Position numbers and translations under genes: made by a program. Shown one piece after another: positions 7,671 through 58,854 of a DNA stretch of 64,000 nt. Under the pieces are notes generated by a model. The model made no database searches. It saw nothing but the letters and a program-made list of their open reading frames with translations, and was not told the DNA's origin. Source of the DNA: an uncultured Bacilli bacterium (GTDB lineage: Bacteria; Bacillota_I; Bacilli_A; RF39; UBA660); NCBI GenBank assembly GCA_934141145.1, contig CAKPCA010000003.1, forward strand, positions 7,748 to 71,747, written 5' to 3'. The stretch's first letter is position 1. The number at the start of each line of letters is the position of its first letter.

Positions 7671-8912
7671 ATGAAAAACGTACATAAAATAGAAGTAAAA
7701 ATAGAAGGACAAAAATGGGAAGAAGCTCTAACAAAAGCATTTGAAAAAGTATCAAAAGATGTTAAAGTTGATGGATTTAGAAAGGGTAAAGTACCAAGAA
7801 ATATATTTGAAAAAAAATATGGTAAAGAATCTTTATATCCAGAAGCAGTAGATGCTGTACTTCCAAAAGCATATGAAAAGGTATTAAATGAAAATAAATT
7901 AGAACCTATTATTCAACCAACAATTGATATAAAAGAAATTGATGAAAAGCATGTAGTAATAGAATTTACAATAACTACTAAACCTGAAGTAAAAATCAAA
8001 AAATATAATGGTTTAAATGTAAAAAAAGAAAAAGTTTCAATAACTAATAAAGATGTAGAAAATGAAATAAATACATTATTACAAAAATATGCAGATGTAG
8101 AAGTAAAAGAAGGAAAGATTGAAAATGGTGATATAGCTGTTATTGATTTTGAAGGATTTAAAGATGGTGTAGCATTTGATGGTGGAAAAGGAGAAAATTA
8201 TTCACTTGAAATAGGTAGTAATACATTTATACCAGGATTTGAAGAACAATTAATAGGATTAAAATCTGGTGATGAAAAAGATATAGAAGTAACATTCCCA
8301 GAAGATTATGGTTCAGAAGAGTTAAAAGGTGCTAAAGCAACATTCAAAATAAAAGTACATGAAGTAAAAACTAAAGTACTTCCAAAAATGGATGAAGAAT
8401 TCTTTAAGGATTTAGGATTTAAAGATGTTGAAACAGAAGAACAATTAAGAGACTTAATAAAGGCAGATTTAGAAGCAAAAAAAGATTATGAACTTGAAAA
8501 TAAATATGTAGATGATTTATTGGAAGAAGTTGCAAAAAATACTACAGTAGAATTACCAGAACAATTAATTGATGAAGAAATTCATAGAATGATGCATCAA
8601 TATGAAGATAATTTAAAAATGCAAGGTATAACACTTGATATGTTCTATAAGTTTACAAATTCAGATGAACAAGCATTAAAGGATCAAATGAGAGGCGAAG
8701 CAGAAAAGAGAGTTAAATATAGATTTATGCTTGAAGAAATTGCTAGTCTAGAAAAAATAGAAATAGATGATAAAGAAGCAGAAAAAGAAATAGAAGATTT
8801 ATCTAAAAAATATAATACTCCAAAAGAAGAATTATTAAAACAAATTGGTGGTATTGAAATGATTAAATACGATCTTAAAATGCAAAAAGTATTAGATGTA
8901 ATGAAAAAATAA
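7671..8912 (+). CDS. tig: trigger factor
   Basis: DGFRKGKVPRNIFEKKYG motif plus PPIase and C-terminal domains. Confidence 0.9.
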   Translation: MKNVHKIEVKIEGQKWEEALTKAFEKVSKDVKVDGFRKGKVPRNIFEKKYGKESLYPEAVDAVLPKAYEKVLNENKLEPIIQPTIDIKEIDEKHVVIEFTITTKPEVKIKKYNGLNVKKEKVSITNKDVENEINTLLQKYADVEVKEGKIENGDIAVIDFEGFKDGVAFDGGKGENYSLEIGSNTFIPGFEEQLIGLKSGDEKDIEVTFPEDYGSEELKGAKATFKIKVHEVKTKVLPKMDEEFFKDLGFKDVETEEQLRDLIKADLEAKKDYELENKYVDDLLEEVAKNTTVELPEQLIDEEIHRMMHQYEDNLKMQGITLDMFYKFTNSDEQALKDQMRGEAEKRVKYRFMLEEIASLEKIEIDDKEAEKEIEDLSKKYNTPKEELLKQIGGIEMIKYDLKMQKVLDVMKK

Positions 8913-57463: not shown

Positions 57464-57492
57464 TTGATAATTTTTAAAATTTATTGTATAAT
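57464..57492 (+). promoter_or_regulatory. sigma-A promoter of tRNA-Arg
   Basis: TTGATA, 17 nt, TATAAT. Confidence 0.55.
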
Positions 57493-57525: not shown

Positions 57526-57602
57526 GCCTCAGTAGCTCAGTTGGATAGAGCAACGCCCTTCTAAGGCGGCGGTCAGGGGTTCGAATCCCTTCTGGGGCAC
57601 CA
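57526..57602 (+). tRNA. tRNA-Arg (anticodon TCT)
   Basis: cloverleaf by eye: acceptor GCCTCAG/CTGGGGC; D-arm TAGCTCAGTTGGATAGAGCA; anticodon stem ACGCC/GGCGG with loop CTTCTAA; T-arm GGGGTTCGAATCCCC; CCA encoded. Confidence 0.85.
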
Positions 57603-57671
57603 GTATTTTGAAGATTAAGTTCATAAATCTGAACTTTGATAAAAGAACCATTTGAAAAGGTTCTTTTTTTT
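57593..57671 (+). repeat. direct repeat copy 1 (tRNA 3' end plus terminator), attL-like
   Basis: about 78 bp, identical to 58376-58455 except one substitution and T-run length. Confidence 0.85.
57641..57671 (+). terminator. tRNA terminator
   Basis: aagaacc/ggttctt hairpin plus T8. Confidence 0.7.
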
Positions 57672-57756
57672 ATTTTATATTGTATTTAAAGAAATTTGTA
57701 GGTAATGTATTAATATTGTGATATACAAAATCATGTTATAAAATTGCATAAGAATA

Positions 57757-57765
57757 TGATATAAT
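57757..57765 (+). promoter_or_regulatory. extended -10 (TGATATAAT) for the cargo gene
   Basis: TGnTATAAT about 20 nt upstream of the AAGGAG RBS. Confidence 0.4.
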
Positions 57766-57786
57766 CATAAAAAGGAGAAATTTGAA

Positions 57787-58401
57787 ATGGCAAATATTGT
57801 TAATCCAGCAAAAGAAAAAAATCAAGAATTTAGAGAAAGTGGTACTTGTTTAGATTTAGAAACAAAAGCACTAAAAAAAGCTTTACAGGATAAAGATCTT
57901 ATGGAAAAAACTACTTCTTTGATGAAAAAAATGTACTATGGAAAATCTGTTAATATAAATCCACTACCAGAATTACCTGCACCCGAAATGAGATTATGGT
58001 CTATTGATGGTAATTATTTTGAATCTCTTGATAAAGCGTTAAGATATTGCATAACGAATAAAATATCTGCAAAAAAACTAAATGTTATAGATTATTATAG
58101 AAATCTTGCAGGACGTTTTGATGTAATAAGAAAATCTAACAATAAAACATCAATACTGTATACTGCGGTAGATAGAGATGGATATGGATTGTATAATAAT
58201 GAAATTAGTATATATCGTGGAGAGTTTGTATGGGAATATAATTATGGTAGTATAAGAGAATTATATAAACCATTTAAAGAAAGAGGAGTTAATTTTGAAA
58301 ACGATGTTTACGGCAAAATAGACGAAGATGATCGACAGATTCTAAAATATTATATAGAAAATAATTTATTTAATATGGGGCACCAGTATATTGAAGATTA
58401 A
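57787..58401 (+). CDS. hypothetical cytoplasmic protein (204 aa), cargo between the direct repeats
   Basis: strong RBS AAAGGAG; last nine codons (MGHQYIED) lie inside repeat copy 2, i.e. sequence homologous to the tRNA 3' end. Confidence 0.6.
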   Translation: MANIVNPAKEKNQEFRESGTCLDLETKALKKALQDKDLMEKTTSLMKKMYYGKSVNINPLPELPAPEMRLWSIDGNYFESLDKALRYCITNKISAKKLNVIDYYRNLAGRFDVIRKSNNKTSILYTAVDRDGYGLYNNEISIYRGEFVWEYNYGSIRELYKPFKERGVNFENDVYGKIDEDDRQILKYYIENNLFNMGHQYIED

Positions 58402-58455
58402 GTTCATAAATCTGAACTTTGATAAAAGAACCATTTGAAAAGGTTCTTTTTTTTT
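58376..58455 (+). repeat. direct repeat copy 2 (attR-like), including a second terminator hairpin
   Basis: see copy 1. Confidence 0.85.
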
Positions 58456-58476: not shown

Positions 58477-58854
58477 ATGGAAGAAAAATTAGAAAAGTTG
58501 CATGATATAAAGGTTGAAAATTTTGTATGGATTATTTATATAATAATAATAGGACTTAGTTATTACGCTAATAGTAAAGAGGTAAAATATTTACTGAATG
58601 ACGATGAAAAAAGTAAGAAAGATTATCAAAATTTAATGATATTAATATTTAGTATATTACTTGTAATATATGCTTACTTTACTGAAAATAGTTATGACGA
58701 TGTAAAAAATTTAAAACCATATGATAGTAATAAGAAGAAAATTTTAATACATGCTTCTTTTTATGGATCCCTACTAATTTTAATTAGTGGTATTATTTTC
58801 TTATGTATTGCAATTGTTGATGATGAAATTGATACTGAAATAGCATTTAATTAA
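58477..58854 (+). CDS. hypothetical membrane protein (three TM helices)
   Basis: ATG 58477 chosen because the ORF-track start lies inside the repeat/terminator. Confidence 0.4.
   Translation: MEEKLEKLHDIKVENFVWIIYIIIIGLSYYANSKEVKYLLNDDEKSKKDYQNLMILIFSILLVIYAYFTENSYDDVKNLKPYDSNKKKILIHASFYGSLLILISGIIFLCIAIVDDEIDTEIAFN

Follow-up and report, generated by a model that had tools for sequence, protein, structure and literature searches.

A strain-variable one-gene unit behind tRNA-Arg(TCT) in an uncultured gut bacterium of the Bacilli and its possible origin from integrative mobilizable elements

How does a single gene, with no recombinase of its own, come to lie between two copies of a tRNA trailer directly behind an intact tRNA gene? 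The question arises at the tRNA-Arg(TCT) locus in a 64-kb stretch of DNA from an uncultured Bacilli bacterium (contig CAKPCA010000003.1), here called the window, where the tRNA is followed by a unit of 783 bp made of a trailer copy, a promoter and one open reading frame (ORF), c0, encoding 204 aa. The 3′ end of this tRNA gene is an insertion hot spot, and the c0 unit is a strain-variable insertion without its own integrase. Insertion polymorphism, arrays of units, a common junction and related elements are all found among the loci compared (numbered with the prefix L). With chances about even, the unit is a decayed, miniature, recombinase-less cassette of integrative mobilizable elements (IMEs) in low-GC gut Bacilli. 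The features of the site are as follows.

57464-57492, plus strand: promoter-like site of the tRNA gene, TTGATA-17-TATAAT, 11/12 in the consensus scan; flanking context outside the insert
57526-57602, plus strand: intact tRNA-Arg(TCT) gene (ARAGORN and Rfam)
57593-57671, plus strand: direct repeat copy 1, the last 10 nt of the tRNA (TGGGGCACCA) and the 69-nt trailer (repeat search)
57597-57603, plus strand: first copy of the GCACCAG junction, common to the tRNA, the ORF end and the 276-aa/356-aa unit of same-species strains
57617-57636, plus strand: trailer hairpin 1, a perfect 7-6-7 palindrome, AAGTTCA TAAATC TGAACTT (sequence, folding)
57641-57671, plus strand: trailer hairpin 2 and U8, with a 9-bp stem and a 9-nt loop, the likely intrinsic terminator of the tRNA (folding)
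57672-57786, plus strand: left non-coding part of the insert, 115 nt, absent at the empty site
57757-57765, plus strand: extended -10 element TGATATAAT, upstream of the c0 ATG
57774-57777, plus strand: ribosome-binding site GGAG, upstream of the c0 ATG
57787-58401, plus strand: c0 ORF, 204 aa, orphan family (ORF call, homologues)
58376-58454, plus strand: direct repeat copy 2, with the ORF 3′ end and a terminator whose T-run reaches 58455 (repeat search)
58380-58386, plus strand: second copy of the GCACCAG junction, from ORF end to trailer (junction table)
58477-58854, plus strand: gene of a 125-aa membrane protein, the right flank, directly after the single trailer copy in empty-site strains

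The evidence for an insertion comes from other strains. The exact 125-aa flanking protein, looked up in public assemblies, leads to an identical occupied locus (L040) and to two contigs of other samples (L042 and L045), where the insert is absent, the target is present in a single copy and the flanks are colinear, GerM, tRNA-Arg, one trailer copy and the 125-aa gene being contiguous in the alignment. The original prediction had looked to an empty site joining the tRNA directly to the gene at 58477, and such a site exists in both. Their flanks are 98–100% identical to the window and, because the two contigs bear private single-nucleotide polymorphisms (SNPs), they represent true empty alleles, as opposed to an occupied allele that collapsed during assembly. 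Look-ups with the GerM protein of the window return only contigs that break at the repeat. The occupied structure of the window recurs in independent assemblies (L040/L050 and L051) and is therefore not an assembly artefact.

Within the same species the site displays four structures, with zero, one, two or three units. The c0 unit stands alone in the window and in L040/L050. The order in L001 is tRNA, trailer, c0, a diverged trailer copy (78% identical without gaps over 76 nt, 85–87% in gapped alignments), a small-peptide module of ~400 nt, a partial trailer and the 125-aa gene; L052–L054 and L075 have an additional pair of genes, for 276 aa and 356 aa, upstream of trailer, c0 and small-peptide module. 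Trailer copies are 99% identical in the window versus only 78–86% in L001 and L053, and repeat copy 2 of the window has the A allele, as does the empty site. A distant metagenome-assembled genome (MAG; L010, c0 55% identical) also has an array at this tRNA, in the order GerM, tRNA-Arg(TCT), the small-peptide module, a repeat formed by the last 4 nt of the tRNA and 24 nt of trailer, two ORFs, GCACCA and c0.

The near-identical repeats, the promoter and the 204-aa ORF that the original prediction placed behind tRNA-Arg(TCT) are all there. The repeat measures 79 nt, of which 78 are identical; the mismatch is T/A at repeat position 14, and the T-run is T8 in copy 1 versus T9 in copy 2. TGGGGCACCA, with which both copies begin, corresponds to the final 10 nt of the tRNA, CCA included. 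In the 64-kb window a 47-nt core of the repeat is present at exactly two places, and none of 100 shuffles contains it, which argues against the dispersed intergenic element that had been considered. Copy 2 encodes two bases of Met197, codons 198–204 and the stop of c0, in agreement with the nine codons first assigned to it if the stop is counted. The tRNA and copy 1 are organised as in the unoccupied site, differing by two substitutions and a T-run shorter by one T, and the promoter-like site of the tRNA is identical in sequence in L042 and L045. A stretch of ~35 nt, described at first as a spacer, is present but not featureless, since it holds the perfect 7-6-7 palindrome. The trailer has a folding energy of -14.4 kcal/mol (z = -2.4), and hairpin 2 with its U8 is likely the intrinsic terminator of the tRNA; the consensus terminator scan does not call it, because of the 9-nt loop and the AT-rich stem. 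Consensus scans for promoters and terminators are uninformative in this AT-rich DNA, and the promoter scan as a whole does not rise above shuffles. The insert lacks integrase and transfer genes, its one ORF being without match in Pfam, PHROG or PADLOC, and no recombinase is encoded within ~6 kb to the left or right, as judged by Pfam searches of six neighbouring ORFs and by Pfam gene tables of the identical contigs L040/L050.

The units have their junction in common. In the same-species loci, GCACCAG connects the trailer with three different left arms, namely the tRNA body, the 3′ end of c0 and the end of the 276/356-aa unit, and two trailer alleles occur on the right side of this junction. 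GCACCA, the tRNA 3′ end, is the junction shared by the units at the window site and by relatives elsewhere; it is rare in the examined loci, at only ~0.12 per kb per strand.

Elements with genes for recombination and mobilization use such ends. Two elements of 5–6 kb, in L027 (1120-6396) and L035 (468-6000), are inserted exactly after CCA and encode a 96–100-aa protein, a 600-aa large serine recombinase (Resolvase and Recombinase domains) and a 414-aa Mob_Pre relaxase (Pfam). Their nearly identical left ends begin right after CCACCA of tmRNA (L027) or ACACCA of tRNA-Arg(CCT) (L035) and consist of a hairpin and terminator, that is, a tRNA-trailer look-alike; their right ends have a conserved arm of ~70 nt, ...AAATTTCCAAACGT-N10-GCACCA, followed by a native-type trailer. 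In a related species (L092; 6305-10144), the element left end stands directly after GCACCA of tRNA-Arg(TCT), behind GerM, and the element right arm lies 3.8 kb further; only cargo genes, with neither recombinase nor relaxase, are found between them. L092 thus has a textbook non-autonomous derivative of elements of the L027/L035 type. In the window species, the same right arm closes the 276/356-aa unit. Serine-recombinase IMEs insert inside genes and disrupt them, and CCA-end targeting with a substitute trailer is not described in the IME review consulted (PMC5704250); non-disruptive targeting of CCA ends by serine-recombinase elements seems unusual.

A second arm of ~85 nt, ...AAAGTTGTAGATAnCT-N9-GCACCA, follows c0 and a terminator in L008, L017, L019 and L032; its core is degenerate in L032 (TGCACTA), a truncated arm is present in L011, and a trailer comes after it in L008, L017 and L019. 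Two copies of this arm in L008 bracket a decayed serine-recombinase element immediately after c0. At the tmRNA of L019 an array reads core, trailer, promoter, c0, terminator, arm, core, trailer. The organisation at the window site (core, trailer, promoter, c0, core, trailer) is that of L019 minus the terminator and arm before the second core. Considered as an RNA, the 85-nt arm has no Rfam match and no covariation, and only a partial likeness to the tmRNA 3′ region. A search for a helper phage or element with GCACCAGNATNNTGAAGATTA as attP gave one viral_contigs match and 31 of 32 metagenome matches that were rejected as chance matches in unrelated DNA of higher GC; the remaining metagenome match (L075) is another three-unit strain.

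The c0 family has 102 homologues in a word-indexed search (36–99% identity, all unnamed) and only 266 cluster representatives among 1.84 billion in a full search with a hidden Markov model. Its neighbourhoods were surveyed at 33 loci. The genomes are species representatives, without exception uncultured gut MAGs, and one of them has two copies; these are mostly Bacilli, Erysipelotrichaceae, ‘Tenericutes’ or Candidatus Onthousia, with a few labelled otherwise. Almost all of the 33 neighbourhoods differ. The gene lies downstream of or beside serine-recombinase elements in L008, L027, L032 and L035. Tight flanking direct repeats surround 5/35 c0 loci versus 6/298 other ORFs (Fisher p = 0.003). 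These repeats consist of host sequence and vary in length: L011 has 186 nt of a gene 3′ end and terminator, L004 ~550 nt with the promoter and first 85 codons of uvrB, L007 37 nt, L019 74 nt and L026 70 nt of tRNA-Lys. Most c0 loci (~25/34) have neither repeats nor core. An extended -10 element, ATGATATAAT (ATGATATAGT in L011), is kept 18–25 nt upstream of the c0 start in L001, L004, L010, L011, L028, L035 and the window while other upstream DNA is unrelated, so that the promoter travels with c0.

The repeat-bracketed neighbourhoods contain other arrangements. In two related MAGs (L004:4211-6153 and L007:9098-11040), the uvrB promoter and approximately the first 85 codons are duplicated with one and the same breakpoint (...TATTAT|AG(A/C)AACACC...). 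This slot is occupied by c0 in L004, and in L007 by an unrelated ORF of 248 aa between the copies of a 171-nt perfect repeat; differences between the truncated uvrB copy of L004 and the full one are mostly synonymous. Since the breakpoint is common and the cargo different, an old slot has been reused, as opposed to repeated independent insertion. Motifs like TAAATTTGTGGCCGAAATTCGTATCC stand upstream of uvrB′, c0 and uvrB in L004 (4354-4380, 4856-4882 and 5749-5775), and a similar one lies upstream of c0 in L019 (6868-6900); the motif may be a common operator. A 1.4-kb insert in the tRNA-Lys of L026 (6646-8181) carries c0 and the small-peptide module and no integrase; TAGACTAC repeats near both of its ends may be arm-type recombinase sites. 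Single genes adjoining c0 are enclosed by direct repeats of 47–84 nt in L039 (5773-6723), L019 (5083-6579), L038 (2220-2879) and L014 (1308-1799), the products being an ORF6N-domain protein (L039, 84 nt), a Schlafen/AlbA_2 and HATPase_c_4 protein and unknowns. One-gene inserts flanked by repeats seem common in these genomes. Finally, a 196-aa ORF without Pfam match directly precedes c0 in two unrelated contexts (L008:75-1330 and L096:4363-5621) and may form a gene pair with it.

Taken as a decayed cassette, the window unit would have the following history. Parent elements would recombine where tRNA and tmRNA genes end in CACCA, one arm of these elements being a trailer look-alike. On integration, the tRNA would receive the trailer and terminator of the element, and the native trailer would be displaced behind the last gene, where it would now terminate the c0 ORF; the outcome would be a long repeat composed of core and trailer. 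The 3′ end of c0 would have become fused directly to the core, with loss of the ~110 nt (terminator and recombination arm) seen in L008, and for lack of these ~110 nt the right-hand site looks defective. Presence and absence among strains could then result from recombination between the 79-bp repeats, from exchange via the flanking genes or from the serine recombinase of a co-resident element acting in trans. Integration, decay to a cis-mobilizable element (CIME) and tandem accretion are a described route (PMC5704250). We infer that a site-specific recombinase made the window insertion. The original prediction, of a decayed element or of a cassette mobilised in trans, fits the position of c0 beside elements with recombinase and relaxase and the existence of derivatives of the L092 type; the repeats that it called attL/attR-like are only putative attachment (att) sites.

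Several observations weigh against this history. The repeats had been read as attL/attR-like, but the identity block comprises only 10 nt of tRNA and 69 nt of host trailer, and does not have the classical extent of a 3′ tRNA part, often from anticodon or T loop to the end; the contrasting case is L026, with its 70-nt repeat beginning in the anticodon loop of tRNA-Lys. The right junction falls inside a 7-nt microhomology, TGGGGCA, between the native 3′ end of c0 and the tRNA end. In L008, the closest relative with known ends (c0 66% identical), the native 3′ end reads AAT ATG GGG CAA ACA GAT TAA, and ~110 nt of terminator and arm follow before ...CGCACCA. Exactly the ...AAT ATG GGG CAC CAG of the window would result if a deletion, or a primary junction, fell within the TGGGGCA/GCA microhomology, so that illegitimate recombination at this microhomology would produce the same result. 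The window cassette has neither conserved arm, its left arm being the host trailer itself; this, together with the match to the empty site bar two substitutions, means that the cassette contains no recognisable recombinase site. Serine recombinases normally give only 2 bp of identity and need sites of ~40–50 bp. Their integration leaves ‘very short direct repeats’ (PMC5704250), and a long repeat thus needs the extra assumption of a trailer mimic. GCACCA is found within 220 nt downstream of the gene in only 5 of 34 c0 loci, and other members of the family lie between duplicated fragments of protein genes, which measure 186 nt in L011 and, for uvrB in L004, ~550 nt; such bracketing is not tRNA-site-specific. 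The absence of an integrase, correctly predicted and established by Pfam for the ~6 kb on either side, extends to any recombinase in the 64-kb window when it is searched by tblastn, the queries from related loci being one large serine recombinase, a pair of tyrosine integrases and one Xer protein. No excised circle has been observed.

Many of these points would suit a different origin, possible though doubtful, by insertion with long target duplication. A fragment carrying the promoter and c0 would have been joined by illegitimate, microhomology-mediated recombination, without site-specific recombinase, its ends falling at TGGGGCA in the tRNA 3′ end and just past the trailer T-run, which would duplicate 79 nt; strain polymorphism would stem from homologous exchange and repeat-mediated deletion. 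The 7-nt microhomology, a repeat consisting mostly of host trailer, a tRNA-side junction equal to the empty site bar two substitutions, the lack of a recognisable arm in the cassette and the fact that serine recombinases normally leave no long repeats all accord with such an event, as do the enrichment of the c0 family for tight repeats of unrelated host sequence and the similar state of other single genes (the 248-aa ORF of L007 with its 171-nt repeat, the ORF6N gene of L039 with 84 nt). Precedents exist in restriction-modification genes, with duplications of 30 to >400 bp and no mobility genes (PMC2853133). However, the joining through GCACCA of three same-species units and of units in distant genomes is left unexplained, and so is the use of the same tRNA in L010 and L092; those who introduced the concept regard repeats linked to tRNA genes as probably arising from site-specific events (PMC2853133), and the uvrB case of L004 and L007 is a reused old slot, not repeated independent insertion. 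Host homologous recombination on its own, with no element-encoded function and with a 783-bp circle, released by recombination between the two trailer copies, or an imported linear fragment entering the empty site through one crossover within the 79-bp trailer, is an unlikely account; it covers the spread and not the first origin, and is compatible with an origin either from a decayed element or by long target duplication. The 99% identity of the window trailers, against 78–86% in L001 and L053, is as expected of secondary, Campbell-type entry, copy 2 bears the empty-site A allele, and a ~100-nt patch from another lineage in the c0 of L001 indicates that inter-lineage recombination reaches the locus; but 79 bp is a short substrate, neither circle nor tandem form is seen, and the first junction of the gene with the tRNA end cannot be made in this way.

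Two further explanations carry very little weight. The 204-aa protein could itself be a mobility enzyme and the unit an autonomous one-gene element targeting tRNA 3′ ends. This is most improbable: c0 is indeed the sole gene between the repeats, its family occurs in many unrelated neighbourhoods, often repeat-flanked, and its confidently predicted fold matches nothing in PDB or BFVD, but no signature of a recombinase, transposase or nuclease is present, no inverted or defined termini accompany the gene, ~25 of 34 loci are without repeats and core, and units without c0 (L092 and the 276/356-aa unit) use the same junctions. That the structure is immobile, being either a local duplication fixed long ago or an artefact of assembly, agrees with an insert composition equal to that of the flanks (GC 0.25–0.28), but it is already refuted: relatives do not all share the architecture, as the original prediction had envisaged for an ancient duplication, and independent samples of one species show the site empty or with one, two or three units, the empty contigs carrying their own SNPs. 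An extension of the decayed-cassette reading goes further and is improbable as it stands. Here, tRNA and tmRNA 3′ ends of these uncultured Bacilli would serve as an integron-like platform for gene capture, where a large serine recombinase, CACCA and a trailer-like hairpin arm suffice to shuffle cassettes of one to few genes, each with a replacement trailer, and the window unit would be one such cassette. If true, the RNA gene would never be damaged, each cassette bringing its replacement trailer.

The c0 product offers few clues to function. AlphaFold2, with an alignment of 30 sequences, predicts an alpha/beta domain after two helices and a disordered N-terminus, with a predicted local distance difference test (pLDDT) score of 81.8 overall and >90 over residues 60–190; Foldseek returns no match to this model in PDB or BFVD. 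No match at curated cut-off or significance exists in Pfam, PHROG, PADLOC (0 families) or PDB-sequence families, and no homologue in IMG/VR or PLSDB. Thus, the defence function proposed at first finds nothing in its favour in PADLOC, Pfam, PHROGs, PDB sequences or Foldseek searches of PDB and BFVD, and the suggested search of phage databases yields none in IMG/VR. The sole INPHARED match by tblastn, a Streptomyces tape measure protein (E = 8e-4), was rejected, as hhalign gives 1% probability and there is no Pfam there. The c0 of L001 is a mosaic in which a ~100-nt patch (codons ~80–113; L001:5230-5330 versus window 58027-58127) is 92–98% identical to the allele of another lineage (L005) and the rest 97–98% identical to the window. 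These alignments suggest a recombining hypervariable segment in c0; independent acquisition of the L001 allele was considered and rejected, because outside the patch its identity to the window is like that of the flanks. In L001 (4991-5030), a run of A8, where the window has A7, shifts the frame of the first nine c0 codons, as three independent contigs show (L001–L003); the gene is called there from an internal TTG, and the allele may be phase-variable or decaying. The product is a cytoplasmic protein, for which our best guess, of low confidence, would be a conflict or accessory function; this guess is based only on the association with mobile elements and on the recombined hypervariable patch.

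The small-peptide module of ~400 nt is found beside c0 and beside tRNA-Arg in distant genomes.

L001:5673-6041, small-peptide module
L053:2950-3330, small-peptide module
L010:5300-5750, small-peptide module
L026:7640-8000 and 8200-8520, small-peptide module
L028, small-peptide module downstream of c0

It comprises a minus-strand ORF of 27–33 aa that encodes a hydrophobic peptide and has a strong ribosome-binding site, and, convergent to this ORF on the plus strand, a conserved region that ends in a hairpin and T-run. The module has no match to an Rfam family; in its layout it looks like a type I toxin-antitoxin pair.

The surroundings of the site are DNA of ~25% GC with a gene set typical of spore-forming low-GC Bacillota. 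The order is PBP2, L33, LDH, EF-P, SpoIIIAH, GerE, GerM, tRNA-Arg, ORF c0, the 125-aa membrane protein, CofD/YvcK-like, DUF4186, TetR and ABC.

To our knowledge, the window unit, with one gene and 0.78 kb, is among the smallest known strain-variable units at a tRNA integration site. The series of zero, one, two and three units, together with related autonomous and non-autonomous elements, makes the decay of elements into cassettes testable, and equally the way in which accessory genes get parked behind RNA genes without damage. The locus also draws attention to mobilizable elements whose serine recombinase would direct them to precisely the CCA end, where they provide a trailer in place of the original. 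The orphan c0 family, travelling with mobile DNA and endowed with a recombined hypervariable patch, is a reasonable candidate for functional screening.

Among known systems, four invite comparison. CIMEs are decayed remnants of ICEs (elements both integrative and conjugative) or IMEs that keep attL and attR, with tandem accretion at tRNA genes (Pavlovic 2004, Bellanger 2011, summarised in PMC5704250). Like them, the window unit is bracketed by repeats that include the end of the target tRNA and is devoid of integration and transfer genes; the units at the site stand in tandem, and related elements exist both as autonomous forms (serine recombinase and Mob_Pre) and as the non-autonomous L092. 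Unlike them, its repeat is 10 nt of tRNA and 69 nt of trailer instead of a 3′ tRNA part, and the cassette is without the conserved arms of related elements, so that its att sites may be non-functional. It is also, as far as we know, far smaller than known CIMEs. Insertion with long target duplication (Nobusato 2000; Furuta, Abe and Kobayashi 2010; PMC2853133) is defined by a duplication >30 bp and an insert <20 kb without mobility genes (PMC2853133). The window unit has the corresponding sizes, a 79-bp repeat and 783 bp, with the insert in one strain, a single target copy in another and a duplication length that varies across the family. The definition further excludes what is attributable to site-specific recombination, and here the overlap with the tRNA end and the GCACCAG common to other units stand in the way; the target is a tRNA end with a junction hexamer found in other units, and the cargo an orphan 204-aa protein in place of the published restriction-modification genes. 

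Serine-recombinase IMEs of the Tn4451 and streptococcal types (PMC5704250) resemble the elements of L027, L035 and L008, which encode a Resolvase and Recombinase protein and a Mob_Pre relaxase, measure 5–6 kb and have only ~5 nt of identity (CACCA) at their ends. They differ in that the related elements insert after the CCA of tRNA or tmRNA with a replacement trailer, and that the window unit has no recombinase. Integron cassettes and Xer-dependent modules (integrative mobile elements exploiting Xer, IMEX, and pdif modules) are small recombinase-less units arranged in tandem at one site with a short recombination sequence between them. The units at the window site are alike in organisation only, having no attC-like or dif-like site, no integron integrase and no evidence of host recombinase action. 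Collectively, the unit is a very small version of known kinds, a CIME-like remnant or a long target duplication, in a little-studied lineage; more unusual are the serine-recombinase elements that target CCA ends with a substitute trailer, and the orphan protein family.

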